Part shown: positions 4,357 through 51,342 of the stretch, in pieces
How the letters are laid out: each line of letters opens with the position of its first letter
Numbering within the stretch: position 1 is the stretch's first letter
NCBI GenBank assembly: GCA_000092065.1
Contig: CP000594.1
Source: Ostreococcus lucimarinus
Lineage: Eukaryota
Direction: 5' to 3' (one strand)
DNA: 64,000 nt
The notes under the pieces: generated by a model
Told to the model about the DNA's origin: nothing
The model's database searches: none
What the model saw: only the letters and a program-made list of their open reading frames with translations
Made by a program: the position numbers and the translations under genes

Positions 4357-4488
4357 GCTACTTTAAACTTAGTATATTTTTTTTGAAAAAAGAGTAGTAA
4401 GAGTAATAAAAACAAACTTTTTGCTACTTTAAACTTAGTATATTTTTTTTGAAAAAAGAGTAGTAAGAGTAATAAAAACAAACTTTTT
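4357..4488. repeat. 2 x 66-bp AT-rich tandem duplication in the element terminal region
   Basis: The unit GCTACTTTAAACTTAGTATATTTTTTTTGAAAAAAGAGTAGTAAGAGTAATAAAAACAAACTTTTT starts at 4357 and again at 4423. Copy B has a single unit. Confidence 0.9.
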
Positions 4489-4583
4489 TTTGAGTTGCGG
4501 CACCCCAACATGATAAAACCGCACATCGACGTCGATGTACCACATGTAAGATTTCTCCAGAACCAATCGTGTGAGTGAAGTGG

Positions 4584-5081: not shown

Positions 5082-5258
5082 TTGTCCTGGTCACCTATCT
5101 ATCCCTAAGAAAATATAGTTGCCAAAAGTGCTCCTCTTGCGGTTTGCAGTCACATTCGAGAGATCATAGGTGCTCGTGTTGCTGCGTGGGGTGCAAGGTC
5201 TGGGATGTAGATATCGAACCGCCTGATTTCACACCTGGACGTTCGTGATCCGACGAGA

Positions 5259-5449
5259 CCTGACGAAATGACGAACTTGTTTTGTCGTCCCCAAATTCGT
5301 CAGCCCGTCGTTCGGTCACACTTTGTGTGTACCAATGATGAAAATGACGAAATGTTAAAATATTTCAATGTTTATTTTTATTTTAGATCTATGAAAAGCA
5401 ACAGTGTAGACCTTTATGAAAACAGTTCGTCATTCGTCATTTCGTCAGG
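5259..5449. other. Iteron / inverted-repeat / AT-rich block in the element spacer (origin-like), fragment 2 copy
   Basis: Same 191-bp block as 15927-16117 and 44245-44435: CCTGACGAAATGACGAAC ... AT-rich core ... GTTCGTCATTCGTCATTTCGTCAGG. Confidence 0.4.
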
Positions 5450-5657
5450 ATCCAAACCATGGTCTTTTTGGTGTCTTGTTGAGTCTTCATATTGCAAATG
5501 TACGAATCACAAAATTAGTATGAACACCAGACGACCGCCGGCGCGAGCTCCGTCTCCCCCGTTTACCCATTGTCCTTCAGCCACTCGAAGCACCCGTCGC
5601 GGTCAATTTCCCAATAGACGCCATTCTCGTCCCTAGCTTGCCTCAGGTGGTCCTCTT

Positions 5658-5841
5658 AATACACCAAAAAGTAAATGCAATTATGGTGTTTCATTATTCC
5701 ATACGAGTACCCCAGAACGACGAGTCGTGACCCATACGGTAAAAATATCACGTCCCGCCGGTCCGGTCCCCATAGTATATAGAATTTATACAATTCAGCC
5801 CGCGTCATTACGGGGGTACAGTAATCTATGTGTCCGACATT
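5658..5841 (+). repeat. Intergenic module R1, copy a
   Basis: CCAAAAAGTAAATGCA...TTTCATTATTCCATACGAGTAC...GACGAGTCGTGACCCATACGGTAAAAATATCACGTCCCGCCGGTCCGGTCCCCATAGTATA...GTACAGTAATCT. It recurs at 19862-20125 (same orientation) and 36231-36410 (inverted), with a partial copy at 51131-51177. Confidence 0.7.
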
Positions 5842-5868
5842 AAACTCGATTTTTGCTAGGGTTTAGCG
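5842..5868 (+). promoter_or_regulatory. Conserved 27-nt 5' motif AAACTCGATTTTTGCTAGGGTTTAGCG (contains a telo-box-like AAACCCTA core)
   Basis: Identical 27-mer at 36494-36520 (+) and 19754-19780 (-), each immediately upstream of and oriented toward a large gene. Confidence 0.6.
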
Positions 5869-5889
5869 TCCCCGGTGTCCCGCGCGCGC

Positions 5890-11800: not shown

Positions 11801-12597
11801 AAGGCACGAGCGACGAACGTCCTTTCGATGCAGCAACTGATGATATTGCAGAAGAAATCGCAAATGAAGCCAGGGTCGATACGGAAGAAGATTCAAGCGA
11901 CGTTGATCGTGTTGACGTCGAGGACGATAGTGATACTCCACCACCTCAGAAAGTTGCATCCGGTCTCGGTAAGCTCGCTCGGGCGTTAACGATGACGAAG
12001 TCTGCTTTAGGCCGGACGACGTCAGCGAAAGCGCGCGAACGGGCACATCGAATGCACTGGAAGGACAGGTTCGCGCTTCACTACCTGGCCGTTGAACTAG
12101 TGCAGAAGAGTTGCGTCATTTTGACGACGTCTCCGCTAGTGGCCGAAACCGCGGTGAGCGGTTGGGCTCTGGTTGTCGTACACTGGTTTACCGGCGCCTT
12201 CGTCTACGTGTGTCAGCCTTGGCGCATCATGACGCTCGGCTTCGGCAAATACAAGGTGCGAAATTGCTTAAACAAAGTCGAGTCCTTGGCTGGATTTTTG
12301 CAGGGCGTGGGACCGTTCTTGGCGATGATCTTCCCTGTTCAGAGAAACGAGTTGGGCGAGGTGAAGCAAACTGTGACACTCTCAGCCATAACTGTCCTGC
12401 TGACCATCATAATCACCGGGCTGCTTTCTATTCGTATCATTGTTTTCGTCGGCGAACGCGTCGCCGTCAAACGAAAGAAGATGGACATTGACAAGGATCC
12501 CGAGAAATGCATGCAAAATGTTCACAAACAACTGGTCAAGCTCGCAACCAACAGAGCGATTGTGAGCATGTTGCTTTCAAGGCAGATTTCGACATAA
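5890..12597 (+). CDS. Large DUF285/BspA-like leucine-rich-repeat surface protein with Cys-rich stalk and C-terminal multi-pass TM region (~2,236 aa)
   Basis: 6.7-kb uninterrupted frame.
- It holds dozens of ~25-aa units of the type FN(Q/A)xIxxWNTxxVTxMxxMF.
- A hydrophobic segment MLFATATWMLLLLTSFVDG lies at 6367.
- A Cys-rich region lies at about 10.5-10.9 kb, followed by about 7-9 hydrophobic helices.
- The start is uncertain: an in-frame ATG at 5890 lies 22 nt after the 27-nt motif, and 6367 is the alternative. Confidence 0.85.
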   Translation: MRWRRRHSSTPRPAVVRVHTVQVVPLDDERALVHPCADEVRFHRASPPFGPLRATVAQPGDLRADGAMPAYASQGVHTGGTAPFATYRAAQHAFATPDGMHWRGGRSVSLKIARSTSGQSGSLAPQRVLNTILVLFGYSPRDLDTREGSRRASVRCQKNMLFATATWMLLLLTSFVDGAIVDRDALKVAVDNCLAANATGNCDCSSDSVDCGTAGSLPISQWDTSRVNDMNRLFSNQGSFNANISAWDVSGVTDMTRMFEGANSFAQDISSWNVVNVTSMDTMFYRADAFNAPIGSWNTDGVTNMFQMFHSAHLFDQPIGSWNTERVTTMQCMFMYAREFNQDISSWNTANVVNMWDMFYSADAFNQNIGSWNTEEVTDMRYMFYSADAFNQNIGSWNTEKVTDLSGMFQGAAAFNQDIGSWNTEEVTDMSGMFQGAAAFNQDIGSWTTTSVKNMESMFEDATAFNQNISSWNVSAVTDFDRMFYTATAFNKGIITTKTTWTGATGASATDMFSAATAWLQRYEYTTNPSGSVVNGPASAWSVKKCSSNQYVLSNTCKACASGKFRSAGDDPDGSNTACTYASPFASNTQLKDTIESSYCLGGSDATGANCTDGKGMYIAQWDTSLITDMNHLFYNKISFDANISTWNTAKVTKMDSMFSQARAFNQRINEWNTSSVVTMEAMFRYAESFDQPIGEWNTGRVTNMKDMFSQASEFNQNIGNWDTSSVTTMDTMFRYTESFNQPISEWNTGRVTNMKDMFSHAYAFNHSIGDWNTGAVENMELMFQNTGVFNQDISSWNTAAVTQMDSMFYGASAFNYDITGWSSASLTSSTDMFLSATAWLARYKNTASPGSKNGPSSNWLGPGPFTTKSALETATWNCLAGSADADGNCDCTTVDCGAAVYESISNWNTSLITDMTGLFEGKSSFNANIGGWNTGSVTNMHQMFNGATAFNQDIGSWDVSDVADMYQMFGSASSFNQNIGSWNTGSVTDMSGMFMNASAFNQPVGDWNTGSVVDMSGMFESVSAFNQPIGEWNTGRVTNMKEMFSQASEFNQNIGNWDTSSVTTMDTMFRYTESFNQPISEWNTGRVTNMKDMFSHAYAFNHSIGDWNTGAVENMELMFQNTGVFNQDISSWNTAAVTQMDSMFYGASAFNYDITGWSSASLTSSASMFLDAPAWLARYKNTVASGSKNGPSSNWLGPGPFTTKSALETATWNCLAGSADADGNCDCTTVDCGAAVYESISNWNTSLITDMTGLFEGKSSFNANIGGWNTGSVTNMHQMFNGATAFNQDIGSWDVSDVADMYQMFGSASSFNQNIGSWNTGSVTDMSGMFMNASAFNQPVGDWNTGSVVDMSGMFESVSAFNQPIGEWNTGSVADMNGMFRSASAFNEPVGAWNTGSVTDMSGMFESVSAFNQPIGEWNTGSVADMNGMFRSASAFNQPIGEWATGSVADMSGMFESASAFNQPIGEWDTDSVTDMSSMFESASEFNYNITDWSSASLTTDMFLDATAWLGRFARKDGEDTTDGPPSKWGEPCGNEWYDATFEEKCEPRVNGIEVKGCNSTCGIKDNWRCDNFDLLRPPGDDLDSYNCTCDNPAGTYASPDLDCARTDCIYGERCLANGLGCAPGAGGNACDRCLTAADIAELPLNERSLSKNGYYKTGQMCTACPETSAGQLFAAAAVVVVLAFCGFKASQLMGAQATNNLKKIVESLQFFSLSLSMSIKWPGPVLNLGKYLEAFTFSIEFLRPECVATGLNWLNIFLSSVFFVPALIFIIIVVNNRRAKHRYKTTVRAIDSERHEDGETVYWIKKPGFLWGTRRAYESKGGDKIVRELQRQYRFRAALRSFGVLSLTVLYLPIVRMCLQSYDCIKIDGVDGLRLEHDIDILCESEGHVIIQAAAAVMLAIVGIGMPIYVIMQVRKIRLSGKLDDPQTIDSYGPFYDVYRREELTHDHKLEIASIRQTAVESSSFRRGEGTSDERPFDAATDDIAEEIANEARVDTEEDSSDVDRVDVEDDSDTPPPQKVASGLGKLARALTMTKSALGRTTSAKARERAHRMHWKDRFALHYLAVELVQKSCVILTTSPLVAETAVSGWALVVVHWFTGAFVYVCQPWRIMTLGFGKYKVRNCLNKVESLAGFLQGVGPFLAMIFPVQRNELGEVKQTVTLSAITVLLTIIITGLLSIRIIVFVGERVAVKRKKMDIDKDPEKCMQNVHKQLVKLATNRAIVSMLLSRQIST
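7963..9978 (+). repeat. Near-identical 2 x 1,008-bp in-frame tandem duplication inside the DUF285 gene
   Basis: The unit starts with CAGCCCATTGGTGAGTGGAATACCGGAAGAG at 7963 and 8971. Track ORFs repeat at exactly +1,008 bp (8321/9329, 8337/9345, 8190/9198). Confidence 0.95.
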
Positions 12598-14711: not shown

Positions 14712-14759
14712 GGTGCCCTCGCTTAAGATTTCTTCAGAATAGAATCTCTGAAAGCAAGG
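14712..14759. repeat. 48-bp 3'-flank module with a short hairpin (TTCAGA...TCTGAA)
   Basis: GGTGCCCTCGCTTAAGATTTCTTCAGAATAGAATCTCTGAAAGCAAGG recurs at 43111-43158 with a few substitutions. Both copies lie downstream of the stop of a large plus-strand gene. Confidence 0.5.
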
Positions 14760-15013: not shown

Positions 15014-15148
15014 TCACTCTTCCTCGCCCCGTTCTTTGATACACGTTCGCCCCACGACGGTTCGACCTGAAATTTTTTTCGGTTTGGCTTCGAACCCGAG
15101 CTTGGTCAGCGCGCGTCCGATGAGCATCTTGCTCACGGTGCAGCCGTT
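15014..15148 (-). pseudogene. C-terminal 44 codons plus stop of the second helicase-like gene family (fragment)
   Basis: The minus-strand reading is NGCTVSKMLIGRALTKLGFEAKPKKISGRTVVGRTCIKERGEEE*. Its first 37 nt match 3095-3131 (35 of 37). It abuts the left end of element copy A. Confidence 0.3.
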
Positions 15149-15261
15149 AAAAATATCAACTTTTTTGTTTCAGTTGGGGCACCCCAACATGATAAAACGC
15201 TCATCGACGTTGATGTACCGCATGTACGATTTCTTCAGAACCAATCGTTCGAGTGAAGTGG

Positions 15262-15759
15262 TCAAACCAAGCCACGCAACTCATCTACCGTAAATTGATA
15301 CTTGTCGAGACTGCGCTTCGAAGGCAGCGTGCCGCGCGCTCGAGCATTCTTGAGACACGTCTTACGCAGTATTCTTTTCGCGTGCTGCTTGTAATAATTG
15401 AGTTGTCTGTAGTTACCATCGCCGCCGTCCCGCTTCGGCGTATATTGAGCTCTGCTGTAGGCCAGACTCTCGTCCACGTTCTCGTGGCACGCGTGTTTCC
15501 GACTGCGTCCAGGAACTCGGGAGTTGAATACGCCGTCGCGCTTCTCTCTCATGTATGCACTTTTACGTTGACGGAGCTCTCCAGCTGGAATGTCCTTTTC
15601 GAGAACTCTCACGTCCGCGTCGCCAAACGTGAAGATTGGATGCCGTGCGTATTTATGCGAGGCAAGGCGCGCTCTGAGCGAACCTGTCGTCGATCCGATG
15701 TACGTTTTGTCACATTTCGCATTATCGCTAAACATTTCGTACACGCATCCCGACGGCAT
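15262..15759 (-). CDS. GIY-YIG family nuclease (165 aa), element-borne
   Basis: ATG ORF with GCVYEM / KTYIGST / R / E(MREKRDG) / N(FNSR) signature order. The C-terminal 60 aa are identical to the 4584-5081 copy. Confidence 0.85.
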   Translation of the reverse strand: MPSGCVYEMFSDNAKCDKTYIGSTTGSLRARLASHKYARHPIFTFGDADVRVLEKDIPAGELRQRKSAYMREKRDGVFNSRVPGRSRKHACHENVDESLAYSRAQYTPKRDGGDGNYRQLNYYKQHAKRILRKTCLKNARARGTLPSKRSLDKYQFTVDELRGLV

Positions 15760-15926
15760 TTGTCCTGGTTACCTGTCTATCCCTAAGAAAATATTGTTGT
15801 CAAAAGTCCTCCTGCTGCGGTTTGCAGTCGCATTCGAGAGACCGTATCGCTGCGTGGGCTGCAAGGTCTGGGATGTAGATATCGAACCGCCCGATTTCAC
15901 ACCTGGACGTTCGTGATCCGTCGAGA

Positions 15927-16117
15927 CCTGACGAAATGACGAACTTGTTTTGTCGTCCCGAAATTCGTCAGCCCGTCGTTCGGTCACACTTTGTGTGTAC
16001 CAATGATGAAAATGACGAAATGTTAAAATATTTTAATGTTTATTTTTATTTTAGATCTACGACAAGCAACAGTGTAGACCTTTATGAAAACAGTTCGTCA
16101 TTCGTCATTTCGTCAGG
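15927..16117. other. Iteron / inverted-repeat / AT-rich block between helicase and nuclease genes (candidate replication origin or bidirectional regulatory region)
   Basis: The heptamer TGACGAA occurs at 15929, 15937 and 16013, and its complement TTCGTCA at 15964, 16094, 16101 and 16109. An 18-bp inverted repeat brackets an AT-rich core (AATGATGAAAATGACGAAATGTTAAAATATTTTAATGTTTATTTTTATTTTAGATCT). Confidence 0.4.
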
Positions 16118-16182
16118 ATCCAAACCATGGTCTTTTCGGTGTCTTGTTGAGTCTTCATATTGCAAATGTACGAATCACAAAA

Positions 16183-18393
16183 TTAGTATGAACACCAGAC
16201 GACCGCCGGCGCGAGCTCCGTCTCCCCCGTGTACCCATTGTTCTTCAGCCACTCGAAGCACCCGTCGCGGTCAATTTCCCAATAGACGCCATTCTCGTCC
16301 CTACCTTGCCTCAGGTGGTCCTCGCGCATTGGGATCCTGTGGCCCTTTTCCTTCTTGAAGAAGTCCTTGAGCTTATTGCCGACCCTGGTCGCGCTATCTT
16401 GACCGCGCGTAGCCGCTGGCAACCACGTCTGGTATTCGATGAAGATGTCACTGTTGCGGATTTTATTTCCAACCCACTTCTCAGGGAATTCAACAGTGAC
16501 GCAATGCTCAAACCATCGAGTGAACTTGGGCATGCAGCCACGCTTCATTTCCGAATACGCGTCGGTCGTAGGTCTGTCTTTCACGTAGTCAAAAGTCGAT
16601 AGGTCGAGCCCCATGAGGTGGTCGTAGATCGCCCTCAAGTTCCTCAGATCCTTGATGTACACGTCGCGGAATTCCTTCAAGAATCCAGTCTGGTCGTTCA
16701 AGTGCGTGAGCAGTGGCTCCATAACGACGAACCGACGATCACTCATTTCCAGAAAAACGGGGTAGTCGTCGTTCGAGAAAAATAGGAACCCAACCAGATT
16801 CATGATGACGTACAGCTGCACGTGCTTCGGGTTGATTGTGAAACTCGTGTCCGTGAGCATCGATTTCAGCAACTTTCTATACATTTTCATGATGCACTCA
16901 TCTGCTTCGTTCAACGCGAGACACTTTTTGCCTTCAATCATGTTCGCATGCGTCCCAAATATGTCCTTTTTCGGATCAGCCGTCTCATGAAACGTCTTGC
17001 CCATGAGCGCATGAAGCAGGTGCAGGAAAGTGCCCTTGCCGGTACCTTGGACTCCTCGAAACACGAGCGACGTGATCGGCTTCTCTTCGGGTCTCTGGAA
17101 GAGACACGCGAACCAATTCAAAGCGTACTCGAGCGCATTTTCTGAACCGCCACATAGCACCAGGAGGAGCTCGAGGAAAGGCTTTACGTCGCCCTCTTTG
17201 CCCAGTTCACTGGGGATGCCTTCGACCGGATAGCCTCGCCACAGATTGTACGTCTTGTTGCTGCAGTTTTTCGGGACGACATCGAGGGTATCGTACACCC
17301 GTTTATTGTCGTCGTCGAGCCACTTTTCGATGAACCCGTTCTTCTTGCCTTTCCTCAAGACACCGTTCTCATCGACAAAGGAGAGTTCTCGATAGCGCCT
17401 CACCAAAGCGGCCTCGCTGAACTTGGTAATGTCCCCGGTGGTTCCATAACAGCTATCGTCGCAGAAGAGGTCCTTGGTTAAGATCTTTGCGACGTGCTTC
17501 TCGAACTCACGGCGGACCTCGATGTAGCCCGCAGACGTGCCCTCTTTGATTTCGTTCTGCTCCTTTTCGGTGATACCGGTCACCAAACACCCAACCTCAA
17601 AGCGAAACTGTCTGGGCTTGCAGTTGCCATGGTTTTTCACGGTGAGCACGCCGAGACCGACCTCGGCGACGTAAAAGTGATTCCCACCGCCCCTTCCATT
17701 GCCTTCGTGGAAGCCCCCACAGCAAGGACATTGGCCCACAGTGGTGCCTCGCTGTGGGCGACATTGGTCGCATTCAAAATCATACGATGTCGCTCCACTG
17801 AGCCAATGTATGCCCGTGAACCCCATTTCCTCGAGCAAAGGTGTCACAGATGCTTGCGTAAAGCTGCACTCCGTGTCCGCGCGTTCGACCTTGTGACCGA
17901 CTTTGCCATCAAGGAAACTGTACAAATCGTTGGGCATCGGTGGTAAATTGTTGATGTCGCCTCGGAGTAGCTCGTAGCCCGGGGCATCGGCACCGACCAC
18001 GTAGTTACCCGTCGTACGGATATCGACGAACCCTTCGATGCCCACCGTGCCTTTCCAATCGCCGAATCGTTCTTCGTCCCATGCGAAGTACGTGTGGTAC
18101 CCGCCTGATCGCGTTTTGACGATGTACGCGCCTTCCCCGCCAACCTTGCGCGTCAACATTTCTTCCGTCAGTTCAAACTCGCACTTGCCACCGTAACAAT
18201 CCCAGTCGATGACGAGGACACGGTTCGGTCGCCCTGTCAGCACGCCGTACATTTCTCCTGGGATGACTTTCTGCGTATTCTGTTCATAGTTTGCTTCATC
18301 GAGGAACCCTCTGCCGCATGTTGGCTCCTTGTTCTGGTCGAGTGGGATCAGATGCATGCCGTTCGTAAATTCTCTGGCGTCCATATATATCAC
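16183..18393 (-). CDS. PrimPol (AEP primase) / Zn-ribbon / D5-like SF3 helicase fusion protein, 736 aa
   Basis: Intact ATG ORF.
- AEP motifs: VIDWD, SGGYHTYF, DIRTTGNYVVG.
- Cys cluster: CDQCRPQRGTTVGQCPCCGGFHEG.
- Walker A is GVQGTGKGT, Walker B is LALNEAD and motif C is FFSND.
- A second copy at 44501-46711 differs at 13 of 736 aa. Confidence 0.9.
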   Translation of the reverse strand: MIYMDAREFTNGMHLIPLDQNKEPTCGRGFLDEANYEQNTQKVIPGEMYGVLTGRPNRVLVIDWDCYGGKCEFELTEEMLTRKVGGEGAYIVKTRSGGYHTYFAWDEERFGDWKGTVGIEGFVDIRTTGNYVVGADAPGYELLRGDINNLPPMPNDLYSFLDGKVGHKVERADTECSFTQASVTPLLEEMGFTGIHWLSGATSYDFECDQCRPQRGTTVGQCPCCGGFHEGNGRGGGNHFYVAEVGLGVLTVKNHGNCKPRQFRFEVGCLVTGITEKEQNEIKEGTSAGYIEVRREFEKHVAKILTKDLFCDDSCYGTTGDITKFSEAALVRRYRELSFVDENGVLRKGKKNGFIEKWLDDDNKRVYDTLDVVPKNCSNKTYNLWRGYPVEGIPSELGKEGDVKPFLELLLVLCGGSENALEYALNWFACLFQRPEEKPITSLVFRGVQGTGKGTFLHLLHALMGKTFHETADPKKDIFGTHANMIEGKKCLALNEADECIMKMYRKLLKSMLTDTSFTINPKHVQLYVIMNLVGFLFFSNDDYPVFLEMSDRRFVVMEPLLTHLNDQTGFLKEFRDVYIKDLRNLRAIYDHLMGLDLSTFDYVKDRPTTDAYSEMKRGCMPKFTRWFEHCVTVEFPEKWVGNKIRNSDIFIEYQTWLPAATRGQDSATRVGNKLKDFFKKEKGHRIPMREDHLRQGRDENGVYWEIDRDGCFEWLKNNGYTGETELAPAVVWCSY

Positions 18394-18695
18394 ATAAGAA
18401 AAGAATTCTTTAAGCCGTGTTTTTCCTGGTCACATCGGCGCGATGACTGATTTTCAAGTTTTTCAACAGCCTGGAAAAGCACGCCAGCGCGCCCCACTGG
18501 TCAACGTTTTGCCACTTTTTCGACGAGATCGGGGTACTGCAAAGCACACGGCGAAGACCCGAGAGATCAGCAGATCGACGAACTCCGCAGTGAGCTCAGT
18601 GACATCGTGTCAAGACTGGAGGCGGTGGAGAGCGCCTAATCATCGTTTTTCTATATCGCGCCATTCGTGGACAACAAAATATACGTCCACATATA

Positions 18696-19691
18696 TTAAC
18701 TCCCCGTGCTTGCCTCGTCCAAATTGGCATCGCCCATGCGCCGTCGAAGCGAAGACGTGTCATCTCCCGAACCACTGAGCGCCTTTAGCGCGCCCTCTAC
18801 GCCACGAAGCGCGCTGTAAAGAAGGTCTTGGGCGCCAACTTTGTTGTACCAATCTTGGAAGCTTTTGCACGCACAAAATTGCTTCTCAGGTCCCCATTCA
18901 GGCTGCCACTTTGGTACGTTACACTGACCATAACCATCATAGTTAACGTATCCATCAACGCTGAGGTTACTGCCATCGCAGCCAATGACACCCACAGGAT
19001 GAACAATGAAGCTACTTGAGCCACTTCGGTGGCCAACATACTGGGGTGGACATGACCCATAATTCCCACGATAATTCCACAGTGTGAGCCTCTGTTGTTC
19101 CATTTTCGCCTCGTAGCTGCGCAACGCATCGCTCAACTCCTCGAGGTTGCGTTCCAAAGATACACTAGTCCTTTTTCTTTTGTGTTGCTGGAGTTGTTCA
19201 GAGGCGTGTTCTTTTATGTCGGCAATTTTATCGGGCAAGCCTTTCAAATCTGCGATAACCGCATCCACATCGGCGCACATCGCGTTCAATGAATTGTCTT
19301 TCTCTTTTAATTTCGCACGAGTGTCCTCGATGTGCTGCGGGATAACCGACCGTCGCGTTTCGGAGATATTCTCGTCTTGTAGCTGCGCTTCCAGAACTCG
19401 GATATCTTTATCGATGCGCTCTACGGTGCGAAGATAACTCGCCCGTAAGAGGCGCTTGAACTCCTCGAGGCCGTCGGGCGTCGGTTTGTCATACTCGTCT
19501 CGTGATCTGGCGAATTTCTCGTAGCATGGGTCCTTGAAGAATGGCTTGTTCTTGTACGAGCGCTCGAGATCATCCTCCGCTGTTTTGACCGCCTCTGACT
19601 CCGCCGTGCCGTTCATCCAGTCCGGTTGCAGCGACGGGTCTAATGAGTTCGTTCTCCATGTCGGTGAGGCGTGCGCGACTGAATCGGTCAT
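18696..19691 (-). CDS. Coiled-coil protein with Cys-containing C-terminal domain, unknown function (331 aa from the first ATG)
   Basis: The track ORF 18696-19769 starts at a non-ATG codon inside the conserved 5' motif. The first ATG (MTDSVAHASP...) is at 19691, 62 nt after the motif. Confidence 0.6.
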   Translation of the reverse strand: MTDSVAHASPTWRTNSLDPSLQPDWMNGTAESEAVKTAEDDLERSYKNKPFFKDPCYEKFARSRDEYDKPTPDGLEEFKRLLRASYLRTVERIDKDIRVLEAQLQDENISETRRSVIPQHIEDTRAKLKEKDNSLNAMCADVDAVIADLKGLPDKIADIKEHASEQLQQHKRKRTSVSLERNLEELSDALRSYEAKMEQQRLTLWNYRGNYGSCPPQYVGHRSGSSSFIVHPVGVIGCDGSNLSVDGYVNYDGYGQCNVPKWQPEWGPEKQFCACKSFQDWYNKVGAQDLLYSALRGVEGALKALSGSGDDTSSLRRRMGDANLDEASTGS

Positions 19692-19719
19692 CGCGTGCGT
19701 CGATGAGTGGCGCCGACAC

Positions 19720-19751
<32 letters not shown>

Positions 19752-19753
19752 GC

Positions 19754-19780
<27 letters not shown>
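19754..19780 (-). promoter_or_regulatory. Conserved 27-nt 5' motif (reverse-strand copy)
   Basis: CGCTAAACCCTAGCAAAAATCGAGTTT is the exact reverse complement of the 27-mer at 5842 and 36494. The following leader resembles that of the 36586 gene up to the ATG. Confidence 0.6.
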
Positions 19781-19786
<6 letters not shown>

Positions 19787-19835
19787 TTGTCGATTTTTAA
19801 CACGTTTACAGTGGAACCTCTGCGGTTTTTGACGC

Positions 19836-19861
19836 CTAAACCCTAATTTCTAAACCCTAAT
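19836..19861. repeat. Two interstitial plant-type telomere-like units (CTAAACCCTAA x2)
   Basis: CTAAACCCTAATTTCTAAACCCTAAT lies directly adjacent to module R1 copy b. Confidence 0.6.
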
Positions 19862-20125
19862 GTGTAAATACGAGTACGACGTTTCATTAACCCATACGAG
19901 TACCCCCGAACGACGAGTCGTGACTCATACGGTAAAAATATCACGTCCCGCCGGTCCGGTCCCCATATACTATGGAATTTATGCTATTCAGCCCGCGCAA
20001 ACAGTCGGGTAGATTACTGTACAGTAATCTACCCGTATCTTACTGTACAGTAATCTGTGCGCGGAATCAGTAATCTGTACCCGGAATGACGCGGGATGTG
20101 GCGTAATCTATACCCGACATCCCGT
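19862..20125 (+). repeat. Intergenic module R1, copy b, with an expanded right part containing a 30-bp perfect palindrome
   Basis: The core matches 5690-5841. The right part holds four GTAATCT-containing units. CGGGTAGATTACTGTACAGTAATCTACCCG at 20006-20035 equals its own reverse complement. Confidence 0.65.
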
Positions 20126-20437
20126 GTTCTGTACACTGTGGGGCTTCAGGCCGCCGAGTATGATTAAGCCTATTTTGCATCACAATTGTCGGTCTACTCT
20201 TAACATTTGGCGGACTCGCGTTACATGCTATTCTGATCGAGTGGAATTTTCCATAGTTATTGTCCGTATGTTGAACGGCCCTCTCTTAAGATTGGGTGCG
20301 CATCTGAAGCGAGGCTTCCAGGATCTGAACAGTCGTGTACAGGTGGTTCGGTTAACGGCGTCTTCTGTACCCTCAGGTGGCGAACTTCATCTCCAAGATA
20401 TCAGGTTTTTGTGCCAAAACACACTCACTTCTTCGAC

Positions 20438-23400
20438 TCAACGGCTTGATTCCAAGGTCGAGCCGTAATCATACGCTCGCGAGCCTACGAACACCGCATC
20501 GCACTCGTTTATTGGCGCGCGTCGCGACTTACGACGTACAATCGCCACAAACGCAACAAAGGTAAACATCGCAAGGTACAGAGTTAATGTGAAGGGTCGA
20601 GGCGCCCCCAATCTGGCTCTCGACTGTTGCACGGCGTTACATTCGCACAGTTCCAATGCCTTGCTTCGTTGCTCGGCATTTTTCCAGTTACGCGTGAAGC
20701 TGACATTAAAGTTTGCGACTCCACGAAACATTTCGTCGACGTTCGCGTCAGCGCTCAATACCCACGAATTCAGATCTTGATTGAAACTTTTGGCGAAAGC
20801 AAACATCCGATGAAAGCTCTTGACGTTGGAGACGTTCCAATCGCTTAGGTTTTGATTGAAATTTCGATTGTACGCGAACATTTCTGACATGTCCGTAGCA
20901 GACGCCGTGTTCCACGCACTGATGATGGTCGCCGCCGTCGATCCAACGCCATTCAGACTATCGTAATGTGTTTGAAATAGACTTCTGAAATTCCTCACCT
21001 CACTTGTATCCACCATGTTTAGAGGCCCAAATCTACAACAGTAGCTGTACTTCGAGAAATTCGACCCCATGCAGTTACTCCGAGCTGACTCTTGGCTTCG
21101 GCAGGAGCGTATCACTTGGTATAAACTCGAACGATCGCCACGAAGTGGTGATAAACCTTGCGCCGTACCAGAATACGCAAAGAGATCTATAAACTGTTGA
21201 TGATCGCTTCGGTGAGTATTGACTTGTTTTTCCTTGATATTTTCGGCAAATGACGGCGAACGATAGCTTGGATTCAGAAAGTAGGTGGAATGGAACATCC
21301 CGTAAGCGGTCGTAACCGAGGAAACATCCCACGTCCACTTTCGCAAATCGCGCGAGAATGCGCGCGCGCCATTGAACATGTATTGCATGTTCTGAACTTT
21401 TTTCACGTTCCATGACGACAAATCCTGATCAAAACTTGTCGCATATTGAAACATTTTCACCATCGTCCCGACTTGCGCGACATTCCAAGATCCGATTGAC
21501 GCGTTGAAGTCTCTCCGATTTTGGAAAAGTTCATTCATGTTCGTTACCCTACTGACATCCCACGTCTCCATGGTCCCAAACTGTAAGTCTCGACACATAC
21601 CTCCGACGGGATCGACTTCCAAACATTTATCTATGATATCATCGATGTTGTCGTTATCGATGTGCTCCATAACTTTGGTTTCAGCGATTTTCGGTTTCCA
21701 ATTGCACGGGGGGCCATGTCTCATGTTCGACTTGCTGATTGAGACGAGTTTGAAATCGAACGAGCTCCGTCTGCCTCTTGCATAGTGACTGAACCATTTG
21801 GTAACGCGAACTTCGTCCTTCAATGCGTACTTCACCTTCCACGCGGCGGCGTTCAGGAACATGTCACCCACGATTGGCTGCAGAACGGTCGATTGCGACG
21901 TTGCGTGCTGGGCGAGACAAACGTACTCGCCTCGAACGGCAGCTTCGCCGCGGCCCCAATTTGTAATGTCGGCATCAAACATCCAAGCGTCGTCAAACAT
22001 TTTATAAAAGTCTGTGACTGATCTCACGTTCCAATCCCCCAAGTCTCCGTTAAATTTATAGGCGTTGGAAAACATCTGGTTCATGTCTTCAACCTGGGCG
22101 ACGTTCCAAAGTTTCAAAGAGCCCCGGAATCGACGCGCGCCGTAGAACATGCGGAACATACTCGTGACTGAAGCAACGTTCCAGTTTTCGATATTGCCAT
22201 TGAAGTCGCGTGCGCCCGAGAAGGCTTCAGACATATCGAACACACCTGAAGTATTCCAGGTTGACATCGCGCCATACTTGGAGTCGACGCAAGCGCCATC
22301 AGTGGGATGTGTCTCCAAACATTTGCCGACGGCGTACAAGAAATTACCTTGATGTACTTCGGCGAAGGTTGATGAATTCGTTGAGTTCTTGCTCGTTGTA
22401 GGCACGGTGCACTTAGCTGGCGAAGCACGATTTGGTTTCTTCGCCAACCCAACACAGTCGACATCACCATATATGGCGTGGCGACCATATTTCCCGTCTT
22501 TGTCGCGCCCCCACTTGTAGCCAATTTTCGTATTGTATTCCAGGCAAGTGCGCGGCTTGCAGGTCCACTTCGACACGGGACCAGAGAGAGACCACGTTCT
22601 TCTACGTTCGTGGCCTTCGCGCGTGCATGCCTCAAGCCAGGCCGTCGCAAGACCAAACATATTGGCACTCCCCAACCTGTCCAGACTCGCGGAATCCCAC
22701 TTGGAGATATCTTGCGCAAACTTCGACGCGCCGTAAAACATCCCCTCCATATTGTACACGTTGCGTACGTCCCAATTGCCAATGTCTTGATTGAAACTCG
22801 AAGCGCCTTGAAACATGCGCAACATAAATGTTACGGAACTCACATCCCAAGCAGATATATCGCCATCGAACTGGTCTCTGCCCTTAAATGCCTCGCGCAT
22901 GTCGGTGACTCGGCTTACGTCCCAGCCAGACATACATCCGTGTCTAAATCCAGAGCAGTCTCCGTACTTTGGGTCTTCACTCAAGCATTCTTCAATCGCA
23001 TCATAGAAGACAGCATTTTCAATGTTTACGTGCTTTCGTTTCCAAACAATCGGTGGTCCATCACTTTTCCCTCCGACGGCGAGAGGATCGCGATAAAACT
23101 CCATTTGAAACTCCGTGATGCCGTCGAACATCTTCGTCGAAACTTCCAACGAAGCCGTCGACCAAGAAGTGACATCAGGAAAGTCTGGGACCACTACTCT
23201 GGAAAACATCTCGCGCATGTTTTTCACTTTTCGCACATTCCAGTGCGATATCTCTGATGGGATCTTTCCAAAGCGAACGCCCTTGAACATCATTTCCATA
23301 CTTGTAGCCGAACTCGTGTCCCATGAAGCAAATCCTGAAGGCAAGCGGGTAGTGCGATATCGCGATGAAAACATGCTCCTAAAGTTCGTTATACCAATGG

Positions 23401-26400
23401 TGCGCATGTTGGATACATCGCAGGTCGTCGACACGGGTGAATTCAAACCAGAAAACATGGAATCAGCATCGACGTTTGATCCGAAACTCCATGAGATGTT
23501 GACATCCGTGCACTCAGAACCCTTCATCATTGCCTTGATATCATTGGCAGAGTCTAGTTTCCACGCGCTCGCTTGACGAAGAATGGGTGGTTTTGAGAAA
23601 GCAAACGCGGATTGCATCTTCTGAACTCGTTTAGGATCCCATTTGCCAAGACCGTCGATGGCGTCGTGACCAATCCGAGCAAATGCAAGCTCCATGCTCT
23701 TCACATTCCTCACGTCCCAAGAACCAATATCGCCGATGCGTCCTTGATTTGTCATTTTGAAGAATATTCCGTCCATGTTGGTGACCGAGGAGACATCCCA
23801 ATGTTTGAACATATTGTGCCAATCACGCCCCAGACCACTGAAGGTGAACCGCATGCTCCGCACGCTACTTACATTCCACGCACCCAAGTTACCAAAAGTC
23901 GCTCCCGGTAGAATGACCACAGTGCGTGGAACATCTAATCTGAAACGCGTTTCGGAATGCGAAGATGCCTTCCATTCTCCCGTATCATTGAAATACCGTT
24001 CTCCATATCTGAAAATGTGGTAATTATAGCGCTGCATGAACATTGCATCCATGTTCACGACTGAACTCGTGTTCCACTGTGACAAGTCGCCCACGTCGCC
24101 TTCAAAATCCTCAAACATCGCACCCATGTCCGTCACGGAGCTCACGTCCCATCTCGACAGGTCACGTGAAAAGTTGGGCGCGTCCTTGTATGCAGCACCA
24201 AACTCTCCAGGGCTTGCTTGAAAGAATTTCCATCGCAAACATACGTAGCCGAACGTTCGGTAATGTCCCGGAAACGCGGCTTGGTCAAACTGAAAGTGGT
24301 TAACAGTACCAATTTTGAACGCGTACGACATGTCGGTTACTCGCGAGACATCCCATTCTGACATCGGCCCGTATCTCAATTCGCATGTCGTTAAATTCTT
24401 TCTGCATGCGATGATCGCGGTATAGAAATCATCATCTGTACGAGTCAAGTTGAGTGGTTTGGATACCAGAGCGCTCAAAAGTCGGCGTCCAAGTGGAAGC
24501 CGAACAGGATCGTCGATACTTTTACCCAAACGTGCGCTGACGCTCATCGCCGGCGACTTGGCGGAGGTGAGCTCCTCTTCGAGCCTTCGCAGCTTGGCCC
24601 GCAAACCTACAAGCCCTCGGTTCCTCGGATTGCGAGCCTCGATCCGCGCAATTTTTGTGCGGAGCTTTGTCATTTCCGGCGTCGGGCTCGGTGGCGGCGG
24701 GCTCGGACTTGTCGACGGCGTGTCGCCGAAGAGCTCCTCTTCGAGCCTTCGCAGCTTGGCCCGCAAACCTACAAGCCCTCGGTTCCTCGGATTGCGAGCC
24801 TCGATCCGCGCAATTTTTGTGCGAAGCTTTGTCATTTCCGGCGTCGGGCTCGGTGGCGGCGGGCTCGGACTTGTCGACGGCGTGTCGCCGAAGAGCTCCT
24901 CTTCGAGCCTTCGCAGCTTGGCCCGCAAACCTACAAGCCCTCGGTTCCTCGGATTGCGAGCCTCGATCCGCGCAATTTTTGTGCGGAGGTTTGTCATTTC
25001 CGGCGTCGGGCTCGGTGGCGGCGGGCTCGGACTTGGTGTAGTCGTCAGATAATCGATCGATGAGCTCGGCGATTGACTCGGACTCGGCGAGCTCTTCTCT
25101 TCGTCAGCGTCCTCCTCTTCGTCAGCATGTTCGACTTCGTCTTTGTCTGCCTCTTCGTCCTCCTCTTCGTCTGCATTGTAAGGCGATGGACTCGGACTCG
25201 GCGAGCTCTTCTCTTCGTCAGCGTCCTCCTCTTCGTCAGCATGTTCGACTTCGTCTTTGTCTGCCTCTTCGTCCTCCTCTTCGTCTGCATTGTAAGGCGA
25301 TGGACTCGGACTCGGCGAGCTCTTCTCTTCGTCAGCGTCCTCCTCTTCGTCAGCATCTTCGACTTCGTCTTTGTCTGCCTCTTCGTCCTCCTCTTCATCT
25401 GCATTGTAAGGCGATGGACTCGGACTCGGCGAGCTCTTCTCTTCGTCAGCGTCCTCCTCTTCGTCAGCATGTTCGACTTCGTCTTTGTCTGCCTCTTCGT
25501 CCTCCTCTTCGTCAGCATTGTAAGGCGATGGACTCGGACTCGGCGAGCTCTTCTCTTCGTCAGCGTCCTCCTCTTCGTCAGCATGTTCGACTTCGTCTTT
25601 GTCTACCTCTTCGTCCTCCTCTTCGTCAGCATTGTAAGGCGATGGACTCGGACTCGGCGCACTTGCTTGTGCGTCGATACCTGTATATTCTGGTTCATCG
25701 GATGGCGTGTAGTTCTGAAATGGTTCATACGAATCTGTGGTTGTATTCGTTTTACTCGACGCAGCACGATGACCGATGGTATCCGCGTCGACCTCAAAAC
25801 TAAAATTGCCATTAAGACGGAAACTGGACTCCTTAGAGTCAAGAATTGCTTGGTCGTCGTCACTCACGGATACTTTATCGAGAATTTTGAGCGAATGTAT
25901 CGTTGGTAGCGGAGCACCTAGTACACTGCGGCGTACGTCATGAAGACGATCGCGAGTGGACAGCAAACGACGGTGACTTGGGCTCGTGGCAGTACACATC
26001 TTGAACAGTTTCTCGTCGTGCAATGACGAATATAGTACCTTTTTGCTTCGGGCGAGCACATCAAAGCTTGAAGTAAGTAGCGCGTCTAAATGACTCGGTA
26101 TACCAACGCCCCTCACGGACGTTAACAATTCAAACGAAGAAGCTCGTGGCGGTAAACTTTTCAGCTTTTCACGCCTCGCCCACGGGAGAGGCTTGGCAAG
26201 GTCTACCATTTCTTCCTCACCGTCTTCATTTTCGCATTTCCCATCGTCGTCGTAGACGCACATTTGACAGGTTGTCTCGTTGATGCTTGCTACATACTTG
26301 AGCGGTAGTTCGGGCAGTACAATATTCTGTAAAAAGCCAGTCACGTTTCCCACGATACTCAAACCCTGCTCTGAATCGGGATATTTCCCCCAGAAATTGA

Positions 26401-29400
26401 GCACCGGTTTGACGTGAAGATCCAGAAGGGTCCCGAATCGACTCTTCACATCACGCGCACCGTGGAAATTACTCTTTGATCGGTTCACCATGGCGTACAA
26501 AGGCCGAAGCGCATCTGTTGGCTCGACAAGTCGAGTTTCACATTCACCCCATGCCGCGCGAATCAAATCTTCGTACACATACGTCACATCCGATGTGTTG
26601 AACCATTGGCGTTTGCAATTATGATTCAGCGTGTGCAGCATCCATTTTCGCGCTTCGATATCGCAGAACGGCCGAGTAACTTGAATGACATCCTCCATGA
26701 GAATTTTGTGTATCTCTGGGTCCTCTTTGCATTTTAATGTCATAGATACTGAGCGTATCATCTTGTAGAATGTGCTCGGGTAATACATCGCGTGTGGGCG
26801 AAATACGGCGTACACACGCTTGATGAGGGTTTGATTCGTGATTGACGCCACGTCGATGTGGTTAATGAGCGTCTCCCAAGCCTCGATGTTGTGTGGATTC
26901 GATTCTAACGCTGAGAGTAAAATCGCACCGACGCGATCGACAACTTGAGCGCCAGCATCCATGTACACGTTCTGGAACAAAAGCATCGCCAAGCGCGTCT
27001 CAACGTACGAATCCAACCCTTTGCTTACCGCTCTTGAAAGTGCACGGACATGGTCGACGGAAACGATGGCATTCTTCTTCACACCTGGCGCGTTACGATG
27101 TTCCAAAATACTCAACGTCGTTCTCGCAAACGTCGAGTTGGTGGGCCAATGCAGTGGTACCGTACGCCACAAGCGCGAGAGTTCATCAAATTTAAAGCTA
27201 ATACCTCCAGGAATGGCTCCCCTCTTTTTGGAAACTTTCGTCGGGATCCCGAGACATGTTTGCATACCGATGGACAGATAAGCGATCATCGCGGCGTCAC
27301 CGCCGTCTTGAGCGATCCGTGGAAGAGAATTCGGGTGCCAGTTTGACGCCTTGCATAGAGTTTCCGCGCGTTCGGTGACGTTTGCGTGATTCAACCTCAA
27401 CCAAGTTGTATTGAGATTCCTTCTGCTGGCAATGTGCATGCATTCACTCGTTGGAAAGTGCGCACCAGCGTGCATGGCTACGACTGGCCACGGAATTCGA
27501 CCAAAATTCATCGCTCCGTTGACGTTTGCATTCAACGTGCTGTGCATGTAGTGAATTGCCTGGAGCGGACTCGGATTCAATTCTCGACTTCCTGGCATGG
27601 CCAATGTCCCATTTATGAGCTTCTTCCTGATTTCACAGACATCGCCGACTTCTTCATCCCGAGACTGATCCAAAAGCGTTGAAGTAGAGTCTGCGATGAA
27701 ATTCATATGACGATAATTGAAAGCTGTCGCAAGGATAGCATCGGATATGTTCGCGGCATCACCTCTAAAATAATTTGCCAAATATCGCACGTGATCCAAC
27801 GCTTTCATGTGCGTCGGCATCGTTAGACTATAAAGTGCTTTTCGAAACGAAACGCCTTGGCTTAACTTGGTGTGTTCTATCCATTCCCAAATAGGGTCGC
27901 TCTGCGGTATTCTCGTCAGCCGCTTGCTGAGACGCTCGTTGGATTCGAGAACTTGTTTTGAAAGCGCCTCACTCCAAGCACCCTTTGCATTTTGAACAGC
28001 AATCAAGAGCTCGTCTTGTGGAAACGCTGTGAGGAAACCACGACGCATAAATGTGTGCTCAGCAGAAATGTCCGAACGTGATAGAGAGGACAAATCAAAT
28101 TGAAGATGATGAATGAGCCGACACGTACCCGCGGCCGCAAACCCAATGAAGACGAATCCTGGGCACTTGGGCGTGTTCATACACAGAGAAGAGCACACAT
28201 CGACGGACACAGACACCGGCGACACTGGATAACTCGTCATCGTCATTTGCGGGAGGAGAACAAAATGAGTTGCAGCCGCTCGTCGCGCTGTGGTGTTCCA
28301 TGCGTGCGGTAAATCCATGATCGGTGTTGACCCTGAGACGCTGATTCTCGGCCGCGAGCCTTTAAACAGATTTGAGGAGCACCCTGTCTGTTGTTCCGAG
28401 GGTTTTGTCACGGGGTCGCAGACGACATCGCAATGCGCGTCTTCGTCATCCCTTCGAACACACTCTACGTCACGAATACGGATGCCGTTGATGCACGCGC
28501 CCCACGTAGTTTTCACGCGCCAGGACGCGCCTACACATCTGGGAATCTGAACATCGCAAGCGCCAGTTTCACCGCGTGTCCAACCATTCAAGCAGGTACA
28601 CTTGTAGTCGTAAGTCCAAGGTTTCGTGTCGTGATAATGTTTCTCACATGCGCCATTCGCGCACGACGTTGCGCCTCTTCTGGTTAAAGAGCAAGCTTGA
28701 GGAGGACACTCTTCACGCGTGTTGCAACTCCGAATACTTTCTGGCCTCGCGAGGGGACATAGAGCGCTTCTGGCGAGAGTCCCATTGGCATACGTACACG
28801 ATAACGATCTGACTTGAAAGGGCCGAGCGTCGTAGTCCAAAGTAGCACACTGTGCGCTGCACTCGCCATATGGCATACTGATCCAGTCAGCGTCGTCTCG
28901 TGGAGGCGGCGCGTAACATTCACGTTCGCGAAAATCTGTCATGATTACCCCGTCAGGTCGAGGGACAAAGCAACATCCATGATCTTCGCATACCAAAGCA
29001 CGAACTTCAGGGCTCGTGGAGCCCCGTCGATCATCGCTCTCGTAGCCAGCACACACCATTCTTCCGGAGTCTTGTCTACACTGCGCATCGCAATGGAAAT
29101 GATTACAGAATTCCTTTTCAGTAGGCTTTTCTGCGTGCGTACAGTGATCATCGGGCAGCGTTATATTTGTGCCTCTTTCGTCTTCGTGCGAGCACCAGAC
29201 CCTACGAATGCGCACTCCACCACCACACGATTTGGAACAAGAGGTAAAAGGGGAGGATTTCCAACGCACGAATTTGAGCTTTGTGAAGAAGCTTGACTGG
29301 ACGGAACTCACCACGAATTCGCGTAGGCCGTCGATCGTGACTGGGTGTTCGTACTCGACATTCGTGTACAACGTTGATCCAGATTCGCTCTCAATCGGCT

Positions 29401-36410: not shown

Positions 36411-36493
36411 AAAACCGTACGGGCATTTACTGCAGAATTGGCCACTTTTCGCGCGGGTTTCACTGGACACGTGTCAAAAACGTGGCTTTTCTG

Positions 36494-51304: not shown

Positions 51305-51342
<38 letters not shown>

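Follow-up and report, generated by a model that had tools for sequence, protein, structure and literature searches.

What are the short modules that recur, in both orientations, in the intergenic DNA of a 64,000-nt stretch of the Ostreococcus lucimarinus genome (NCBI GenBank assembly GCA_000092065.1, contig CP000594.1; the whole stretch is here called the window)? An earlier note, made from the letters alone, described three of them, R1, R2 and R3, together with a 30-bp palindrome, and proposed that they could be protein-binding cassettes, remnants of a small non-autonomous element, or a small-RNA gene. R1, R2 and a further module, R1d, are the arm types L, H and S, respectively, of one dispersed intergenic cassette family with a common architecture; that they are the arms of a single palindrome-centred unit had been missed. 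A leader module beyond the L arm, T, is linked in its orientation to the starts of open reading frames (ORFs), and alternative junctions between genomes cluster at or near the palindromic centres. The reading that we favour, with a probability of about 0.55, is that these are portable cassettes with bidirectional promoters and leaders, and that their palindromic centre is a hotspot of breakage and rejoining.

Cassette copies and their anatomy

Self-comparison of the window with BLAST confirmed R1, R2, R3 and the palindrome where the earlier note had placed them, all far above chance. R1a and R1c (5656–5817 and 36409–36249) are 89% identical (E = 6e-51), R1a and R1b (5688–5804 and 19881–19997) 92% identical (E = 2e-41), and R1b and R1c (19881–20029 and 36377–36229) 86% identical (E = 3e-39); the R2 pair (36151–36230 and 48791–48870) is 81.5% identical and the R3 pair (47181–47321 and 48868–49008) 90% identical. 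The segment 20006–20035 is indeed an exact 30-nt palindrome, four GTAATCT units are legible within 20025–20110, as had been claimed, and the related core TTACTGTAC occurs eight times compared with 0.18 expected (at 5816, 20014–20053, 36236 and 51156–51174). It is also correct that R1a starts where an element fragment is truncated, as similarity to a repeated element described below stops at 5655–5657 and R1 similarity runs from 5656. The parts of the cassettes in the window are the following.

5656–5826, plus strand: R1a, an L arm; its TATA-like box faces left (self-BLAST, metagenome comparison).
5840–5910, plus strand: truncated T leader with telobox TAGGGTTT (5857–5864); nhmmer E = 8.5e-13, 3′ half of the profile only.
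19702–19861, minus strand: full T leader with double-telobox linker; nhmmer E = 2e-39.
19862–20005, plus strand: R1b, an L arm whose TATA-like palindrome CCATATACTATGG (~19964–19976) faces left, toward T.
20006–20035, no strand: cassette centre b, the exact 30-nt palindrome CGGGTAGATTACTGTACAGTAATCTACCCG.
20036–20125, plus strand: second centre core (20040–20053), two CAGTAATCTGT.C.CGGAAT units, and a right arm that has decayed, GACGCGGGATGTGG..., and contains an 8-bp hairpin.
36020–36230, plus strand: R2a, an H arm (36151–36230) plus leader (36020–36150).
36231–36244, no strand: centre c, TTACAGTACAGTAA, an imperfect core variant.
36245–36410, minus strand: R1c, an L arm with its TATA-like box facing right.
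36411–36576, plus strand: linker (palindrome CCGTACGG and TTTTCGCGCG site), then full T leader; nhmmer E = 1.3e-32.
48791–48870, plus strand: R2b, an orphan H arm cut at the centre edge (…CCCGCGCTTTGA, then GGATGG…), with teloboxes adjoining on the left (48652–48777).
51037–51149, plus strand: R1d, an S arm consisting of leader, telobox (51096–51103), TATATTAATG and CATCCCGCGC box.
51150–51175, no strand: centre d, GTAGATTACTGTACTGTACAGTAAC, with one extra TGTAC unit and no right arm.
TATA-like boxes: ~19964–19976 (minus), 36286–36297 (plus), 36150–36160 (minus) and 51108–51117 (minus).

R1a ends in a centre with a 10-nt internal deletion, where GGGGGTA is followed by CAGTAATC. The H arm of R2a consists of the CATCCCGCGC box, a CTTTGGG...CCCAAAG hairpin and TATATAGC, and the 390-nt unit that contains R2a was found again, at 94% identity, in two metagenome contigs (L013 and L039).

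Some of the boundaries drawn earlier have to be moved. The first part of R1b as originally delimited (19862–20035) is R1, but the rest (20036–20125) consists of a second palindrome core and of an arm that is of another type and has decayed. The telomere-like repeats said to abut R1b are present only in the form of two lone AAACCCTA octamers 6 nt apart; no tandem head-to-tail CCCTAAA units were found, only lone AAACCCTA octamers with TTTCT-type spacers between them, and a telomere array is thereby ruled out. The double-AAACCCTA linker is conserved at at least 12 other loci. The partial R1 copy reported at 51131–51177 is related to R1, but the actual arm spans 51037–51175. The mixture of R1 orientations holds in part, as R1b and R1c, each taken together with its leader, are collinear inverted repeats of ~290 nt (19754–20029 and 36520–36229) around a 5156-aa gene, and only R1a is flipped relative to its leader.

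The census of copies in metagenome contigs was seeded with the exact R1 20-mer GTCCCGCCGGTCCGGTCCCC, which returned 40 loci; 32 of them carry full-length R1 at ~80–95% identity, and the remaining 8 are high-GC chance matches. The 32 loci lie in Ostreococcus-like contigs with many unrelated flanks and GC contents mostly between 0.44 and 0.56, and most of them resemble the window only in modules (T, the S arm, R3, and a module M described below). Several contain two or three R1 copies, and R1 is frequently located at a contig end, which fits a repeat that breaks short-read assemblies. The family is at home in low-GC, repeat-rich Ostreococcus DNA. Exact searches of 2.9 million viral contigs for the palindrome and for the cores of R1 and T yielded no match to any of them, and a viral origin was rejected. 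The earlier note would have given up its proposal had the modules been local duplications confined to the window; they recur far beyond it. A profile search of the window itself (nhmmer) found three T modules and six arms, all in the low-GC part (positions 1 to ~51,170, with GC content of ~50%) and none in the remainder, where the GC content is 54–71%.

When the copies are piled up on the core, R1 appears as one arm, the long one (L), of a larger unit that is imperfectly palindromic. The central palindrome is (GGGGG)TAGATTACTGTACAGTAATCTA(CCCCC), with a core TTACTGTACAGTAA that is mostly extended to GGGGGTAGATTACTGTACAGTAATCTACCCCC. Outward from the centre follow a variable spacer of 6–8 nt, a mirrored CATCCCGCGC box, a TATA-like box and an arm-specific leader. 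The TATA-like box is located ~20 nt outside the CATCCCGCGC box and points outward, and the mirrored pair lies ~45 nt from the axis. The L-side consensus reads ...GTAAATRCA-TTATGGTGTTTCATTATTCCATACGAGTACCCC-GAACGACGAGTCGTGACCCATACGGTAAAAATATCAC-GTCCCGCCGGTCCGGTCCCC-ATATACTATGGAATTTATGCCATTCATCCCGCGC-N6-8-GGGGGTAGATTACTGT up to the axis and continues past it as ACAGTAATCTACCCCC-N6-8-GCGCGGGATGA.... The far side is occupied by an inverted S arm (the R1d type, GATGATAGCCATAAATCAATTAATATATG), by an inverted H arm (the R2 type: GATGTTGCCAAAGTATAGGCC, hairpin, GCTATATAA) or, more rarely, by a second L arm. The 38 distinct centres include 16 with two arms (nine L-S, four S-S, two H-L and one L-L) and 16 with one. 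Conservation comes in blocks: boxes and centre are almost invariant, while the 6–8 nt spacer between box and centre and the outer linkers vary. The outer end of the L arm leads through one of two or three linker types, one with a double telobox and another with the palindrome CCCGTACGGG and the TTTTCGCGCG site, into the T leader (...ACGTGTCAAAAACGGGCCTTTTCTGAAACTCGATTTTTGCTAGGGTTTAGCGTCTCCGGTTTTCCGACGGAGGAATTGCGTGCGGGCAGATCGCGTCGTCGGCGCCAC). With its mirrored boxes, TATA-like boxes, teloboxes and E2F-like sites, this anatomy is best matched by the first of the three original options, protein-binding cassettes.

Two details of the arms are recorded here in their own right. The TATA-like palindrome of the L arm exists in two forms, CCATATACTATGG in R1b and CCATAGTATATAG at 5769–5781, in which the central 3 nt are inverted; the difference resembles loop flips of hairpins elsewhere. 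GTAC cores (CCCGTACGGG, CTGTACAG) are recurrent in the cassettes.

Relation to gene starts

The modules are strongly biased toward gene starts, in both position and orientation. An ORF of at least 80 aa beginning with ATG follows within 250 nt of T in 13 of 18 distinct testable copies, compared with 2 of 14 in the reverse direction. The distance from the end of T to the first ATG of a long ORF is ~20–240 nt, typically 60–160 nt, and in several copies the ATG comes ~10–40 nt past the end of T. The T telobox is located 20–240 nt upstream of an ATG-initiated ORF in 13 of 18 copies. The AAACCCTA octamer is present in the window in nine copies (0.53 expected), every one of them inside a module and all nine in modules of the upstream type.

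The T leader at 19702–19861 aims at the ATG at 19694 of a 332-aa minus-strand gene, the T leader within 36411–36576 at the ATG at 36586 of a 2136-aa gene, the R2a leader at 36020–36150 at the ATG at 35908 of the 5156-aa minus-strand gene, and R1d at the ATG at 50968 of a 596-aa minus-strand gene; the truncated T leader at 5840–5910 directly precedes a long DUF285-repeat ORF. Two-armed cassettes are found between divergent ORFs in the window (35908 on the minus strand, 36586 on the plus strand) and in five metagenome contigs (L004, L027, L032, L059 and L042, the last representing the locus that lies 10 kb left of the window).

The cassette belongs to no single gene. All-against-all BLASTP of 36 flanking ORFs showed that the downstream proteins are mostly unrelated, and the cassette is therefore not the conserved promoter shared by one paralogous family. 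Nor is it an ancient promoter of the 596-aa gene, whose closest homologue found (88% nucleotide identity) has different, high-GC neighbours and no cassette; upstream of the two genes, comparison by eye reveals a common 18-nt segment CACAATCCGACGCTCGAC, ~15–40 nt before the ATG, and nothing beyond.

Because TATA-like, E2F-like and telobox motifs occur at fixed positions, and because the plant telo-box AAACCCTA(A) is described as a promoter element (PMC1794593), we infer that the arms could be divergent core promoters with 5′ leaders for the flanking genes. The evidence for this promoter reading is of three kinds, namely position, orientation and motif content. One metagenome contig (L050) ends 2 nt before an ATG, exactly at the start of the repeated T module, and is thus uninformative on the 5′ ends of transcripts.

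Palindrome centres as joints between genome arrangements

Closely related genomes differ at the palindrome centres, which are the joints between their arrangements; this, too, had been missed by the earlier note. Each of the window's four centres has other partners in environmental contigs that are nearly identical to the window. Contigs with the exact 596-aa protein (L051–L059, from nine metagenome samples) match the window at ~99.6–99.96% identity over the gene and the S arm, as far as 51168–51169. Past 51168, the window and these contigs display five arrangements.

Arrangement 1 (window, L051): the high-GC region past the centre.
Arrangement 2 (L052, L053, L058): window 20040–20569 at 100% identity, comprising the right half of R1b together with the 3′ side of the 5156-aa gene.
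Arrangement 3 (L054): the beginning of an H-like arm, and different DNA after it.
Arrangement 4 (L055, L057, L059): a hybrid H/L arm and T-type linker; another gene comes next in L059, the sole contig long enough.
Arrangement 5 (L056): an inverted S arm.

In a further contig, L035, window 18432–20027 (with the L arm of R1b) is joined to 51162–51272, at 100% identity on both sides. This junction (20027/51162) and that of arrangement 2 (51168/20040) are the reciprocal junctions expected if a 31.1-kb block was deleted and circularised or tandemly duplicated; block 20040–51168 would then be missing from some genomes, and others would have it as a circle or in tandem copies. The cargo of the block comprises the 5156-aa and 2136-aa genes, one repeated element, a Cys-rich gene, ferritin and the 596-aa gene.

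That these junctions could stem from assembly chimeras is countered by several facts. The window pieces overlap by just 13 nt at both junctions, which, given that L052 was assembled at k = 141 (L056 at k = 119), makes a repeat-mediated misjoin unlikely for L052. Junction 51168/20040 was seen in three separately assembled samples, and misassembly is therefore unlikely there. The 20027/51162 junction is less secure, as it comes from the single contig L035, for which assembly parameters are unstated.

The other centres behave in related ways. At centre a, the window has the 10-nt centre deletion followed by the truncated T and the DUF285 gene; L039 and L013, which are 99.4–99.6% identical to it on the left, lead into an intact centre, an H arm and a different gene. 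At centre c, L017 (99.4% identical over 7 kb) has high-GC DNA opposite. R2b is cut at the centre edge and joined to R3b, one of the two R3 copies. Many one-armed copies end in ...ACTGTAC, and others join up to ~12 nt past the axis. The R1b palindrome and its duplicated core look like the scar of a join, with an L half-site mirrored, a 4-nt filler and an incoming centre.

Hotspots of palindrome-mediated rearrangement include the human AT-rich palindromic repeats behind t(11;22) and engineered palindromes in yeast. The cassettes resemble them in their capability to form hairpins or cruciforms, in independent breakpoints at or next to the symmetry centre and in small losses or gains at the joints. 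As single-stranded DNA, the 30-nt palindrome has a predicted folding energy of −13.1 kcal/mol (z = −6.6), and a 141-nt L-S cassette is predicted to form a hairpin of ~100 nt (z = −6.0); on these models the centres would form hairpins, as such hotspots do. Breakpoints are observed to cluster at or near the symmetry centre, with five partners at 51168, four polymorphic centres and 16 one-armed copies. The cassettes differ from the known hotspots in being far shorter (16–32 nt of perfect and ~100–130 nt of imperfect palindrome), in existing as dozens of dispersed copies that recombine with one another, and in being built into the upstream regions of genes.

These results lead us to propose that the arms would drive divergent transcription and supply leaders for whichever genes adjoin them, and that the palindromic centre would fold as a hairpin or cruciform and break preferentially. 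The likeliest route of repair, we infer, would be that hairpin-induced double-strand breaks are resolved by end joining or by recombination with other centres. Gene blocks, each with its own promoter arm, could then be deleted, duplicated or circularised and subsequently re-partnered. As a consequence of such re-partnering, the modules would look reshuffled in both orientations and unrelated genes would have alignable upstream DNA.

Several observations weigh against the combined promoter and hotspot reading. The TATA-like boxes are located 245–290 nt from the ATGs, which is long for so compact a genome. No gene stands before the arm of R1a, which faces a repeated-element fragment, or before R2b, which is turned to the ferritin 3′ end, and R1b has a decayed right arm. 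The switch in L017 lies ~60 nt inside the arm, off the axis. A precise site of exchange is further contradicted by the scatter of junctions from ~−5 to +12 nt around the axis and by changes in core length in 5-nt (TGTAC)n steps. It may also be, as a weaker alternative, that the centre collects breakpoints simply by being the longest exact sequence common to different cassettes. In addition, the 20-mer used as seed biased the census to conserved copies.

Competing explanations and genomic setting

The explanation of the cassettes as copies or remnants of a non-autonomous DNA transposon has, in our judgement, a modest chance of being right. The transposon could be a foldback element or miniature inverted-repeat transposable element (MITE) with incidental outward promoters; or the centre could consist of two Tc1/mariner-type ends (…ACTG TA CAGT…, putative end CAGTAATCTACCCCC) abutting over TA, with the gene blocks between centres as the mobile units. 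The cassettes are dispersed, multi-copy, present in both orientations, strongly symmetric inside and assembly-breaking, but the symmetry is internal: the outer ends (the T leader versus the S or H leader) are unrelated and not inverted repeats, the copies have no sharp outer boundary in common, their similarity fading variously near ATGs, and no target-site duplications or flanking direct repeats are visible in the copy pile-ups. Excision footprints of Tc1/mariner elements take the form of C(A/T)GTA-type length variation, and the core, which reads TA-CTG-TA-CAG-TA, varies in length by C(A/T)GTA units; (TGTAC)n slippage would look identical. Block 20040–51168 is represented by a filled site in the window, by an "empty" junction in L035 and by an end-to-end junction in L052, L053 and L058; the junction positions scatter, however, without a fixed end, and T reaches to within tens of nucleotides of ATGs, which is not expected from random insertion. 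Pfam scans of 19 of the longer window ORFs (nine in the low-GC part; the 5156-aa, the 2240-aa and most short ORFs were outside the scan) found no DDE transposase and no tyrosine or serine recombinase, the closest findings being the repeated element's Prim-Pol/helicase protein and a GIY-YIG match below threshold. A transposon in the classical sense, and with it the small non-autonomous element of the earlier note, was rejected for want of outer terminal inverted repeats, a sharp common end, a target-site duplication, or a transposase or recombinase domain in the scanned ORFs. A long terminal repeat was dropped as well, as T abuts ATGs and no tRNA primer-binding-like sequence was seen on reading. 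The reading of the centres as dedicated att/lox-like recombination sites, at which a recombinase encoded elsewhere would move blocks of 15–31 kb by excision, inversion and reinsertion, seems unlikely to us. The geometry fits, with 13-nt inverted arms GGGGGTAGATTAC flanking a symmetric TGTACA spacer; alternative partners exist at all four window centres, five of them at one site in populations that are ~99.6–99.9% identical, and the reciprocal deletion and circle/tandem junctions match the window at 100% identity on both sides. Yet the exchange is not conservative, given the 5-nt gains and losses, the one-armed joins to unrelated DNA and the ~60 nt off-centre switch of L017, and none of the scanned ORFs matches a tyrosine or serine recombinase.

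It is equally unlikely that the cassettes are neutral debris, that is, duplicated 5′ regions of genes scrambled without any role in a rearrangement-prone, repeat-rich region. Other repeats are found there at similar identity (the 3.4–3.7 kb element at 94–97%, R3 and M) and some arms are orphaned or decayed, but debris would not lead one to expect that unrelated genes have the cassette in common right to their ATGs, with a strong orientation bias, with invariant boxes conserved block-wise between variable spacers, and in dozens of copies at 80–95% identity over different loci. A structured small RNA encoded by R1, R2 or both is very unlikely. The ~100 nt conserved downstream of the TATA-like box would suit such a gene, and so would an A-T to C-G change in the R2 hairpin, on which the claim of compensating stem changes had been based; this is the only such pair, a third R2 variant (L013/L039) has A.G there and breaks it, and a run of five T is located near the predicted start. 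Rfam models gave no match in the whole window at gathering thresholds and one chance-level match (E = 9) in a permissive run on 35900–36650, and ARAGORN found no tRNA genes. The folds of the L arm (z = −0.69) and R2 (z = −0.4 to −0.9) are no better than those of shuffled sequences, with z between +0.2 and −1.2 over all single-sequence folds (L arm, both strands of R2, T leader, M); covariation is nearly nil, as RNAalifold on 26 L arms gave a term of −0.37 kcal/mol, one sequence being compensatory at 1 of 22 predicted pairs.

Our preferred reading, portable promoter cassettes with a fragile centre, can also be set against other known systems. As in plant promoters with telo-box, E2F-like (TTTCCCGC/TCCCGCGC) and TATA elements, motifs are found at fixed positions and orientations upstream of ATGs; here they are part of a 130–350 nt unit that aligns across unrelated genes at 80–95%, whereas the plant sites are short and independently evolved. 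MITEs and foldback transposons are likewise short, non-coding, dispersed in both orientations near genes and endowed with inverted symmetry. In the cassettes, however, this symmetry is central and not terminal, common sharp termini and target-site duplications are lacking, and the polymorphism consists in an exchange of partners at the centre and not in insertion versus empty site. By analogy only, integron attC sites with their gene cassettes and shufflons also combine intergenic imperfect palindromes with gene blocks that are exchanged, excised and reordered, but the present cassettes reside in a eukaryote, their joints are imprecise, no integrase was found in the 19 scanned window ORFs, and the site bears predicted outward promoters, which integron cassettes do not have. 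Outlier regions of Mamiellales (on the outlier chromosomes, both the big one and the small one) are described as low in GC, rich in transposable elements or lineage-specific genes, transcriptionally hyperactive, hypervariable and tied to virus resistance (10.1101/2025.04.21.649811; PMC5082852; PMC13390643). The cassette-bearing DNA is similar in its low GC content, repeated elements, hypervariability between strains and giant and lineage-specific genes, and differs in that the window island may lie on a standard chromosome. The papers searched on these regions describe no palindrome-centred cassettes and no breakpoints at them; in PMC13390643, a 4-nt microhomology is reported at one fusion site and no specific pattern at another.

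The window is nuclear DNA: two of its ORFs translate to exactly the O. lucimarinus CCE9901 proteins ABO99584 and ABO99774, which belong to a record of 708,927 bp, and Pfam matches to HECT, MIF4G/MA3, ABC-F and ferritin indicate that the DNA is eukaryotic. The low-GC part contains three giant ORFs (5156, 2240 and 2136 aa), three copies of the repeated element, ferritin and a Cys-rich ORF. Its larger genes and remaining repeats are the following.

5875–12597, plus strand: giant ORF of 2240 aa with DUF285 repeats, directly preceded by the T leader on the R1a side.
20438–35908, minus strand: giant ORF of 5156 aa, with ATG at 35908.
36586–42996, plus strand: giant ORF of 2136 aa, with Tectonin and F5/8 type C domains.
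43096–43184, plus strand: M module with the hairpin TTCAGA…TCTGAA, 100 nt past the stop codon of the 2136-aa gene.
15148–18558, 43389–47116, and a split copy at 1667–3095 (minus) and 4335–5657 (plus): the repeated element, 3.4–3.7 kb, 94–97% identity.
47181–47321, minus strand: R3a, the last 8 codons (…CIDNCCC, stop) and ~110 nt of 3′ flank of the Cys-rich, metallothionein-like ORF.
48868–49008, minus strand: R3b, a fragmentary copy of the Cys-rich gene end (…CKDNCCC, stop) with stop codons upstream.

The position and duplication of R3 stand, but it is different in kind from R1 and R2, being the duplicated 3′ end of a Cys-rich gene, and R3b is a dead fragment of that end. The metallothionein-like Cys-rich ORF (47296–47590, minus strand) is back to back with ferritin (47685–48542, plus strand), and a variant haplotype (L041, 10552–13028) has CobW/COG0523 and GTP cyclohydrolase II genes in the same neighbourhood; the island thus has several metal-homeostasis genes. 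M is ~90 nt long and is found 60–320 nt past the stop codons of unrelated genes in constant relative orientation, with a 44-nt copy at 14716–14759 and others in L042 (5495–5559), L007, L014, L019, L028 and L037; judging from this placement, it may be a common 3′-end or terminator cassette. The repeated element encodes a 736-aa Prim-Pol + DUF5906 (D5-like helicase) protein and the 165-aa ORF with the sub-threshold GIY-YIG match, and has no capsid or integrase genes. It lies a few hundred nucleotides downstream of M in two blocks, R3 follows its right end in two places, and an AT-rich unit of 66–88 nt (…GCTACTTTAAACTTAGTATATTTTTTTTGAAAAAAGAGTAGTAAGAGTAATAAAAACAAACTTTTT) is present at its left end at 4335–4488 and 43389–43476, duplicated in tandem in copy A. 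The 2240-aa ORF consists of DUF285/BspA-like repeats of ~25 aa each, and so does the C-terminal third of the 5156-aa ORF; the 5156-aa ORF also has tandem DNA repeats of 162 and 114 nt at 24551–25773.

The switch in GC content coincides with the one-armed R1d centre (~51150–51175), 50 nt past the stop codon of an RbfA-domain gene (51223–52422, minus strand). In the high-GC part, two perfect (TCG)n/(CGA)n runs (51303–51342 and 60537–60574), inverted and 9.2 kb apart, are probably acidic or serine-rich coding repeats. The place of ABO99584 (protein number 5934) in the protein order, compared with the gene counts in Table 1 of PMC2367439, suggests chromosome 14, although this assignment is uncertain; the recognised outlier chromosomes are 2 and 18, and chromosome 14 is not among them. 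If the assignment is true, an outlier-type low-GC island of at least 61 kb would be located on a "standard" chromosome.

Palindrome fragility, bidirectional promoters, teloboxes and dispersed repeats are each known singly, and it is their combination, a portable promoter unit of unrelated genes whose centre is a recurrent joint of gene order, that appears to be new. The same unit lies upstream of many unrelated low-GC genes and marks differences in gene order among near-identical wild genomes. A defined unit of 130–350 nt of this kind would make it testable how outlier DNA rearranges so fast and why its genes behave alike. On the practical side, the cassettes break short-read assemblies, which is relevant to assemblers and annotators. 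A further-reaching proposition, which we regard as doubtful, is that the centres are the joints of a eukaryotic system of gene-block shuffling, in which blocks of 15–31 kb with giant surface-protein genes and promoter-bearing half-site ends would be excised (perhaps as circles), duplicated and reinserted at other centres. If this were true, it would allow rapid variation of cell-surface gene content and expression in Ostreococcus populations, and would provide a concrete mechanism for the hypervariability of outlier DNA that has been linked to virus resistance.

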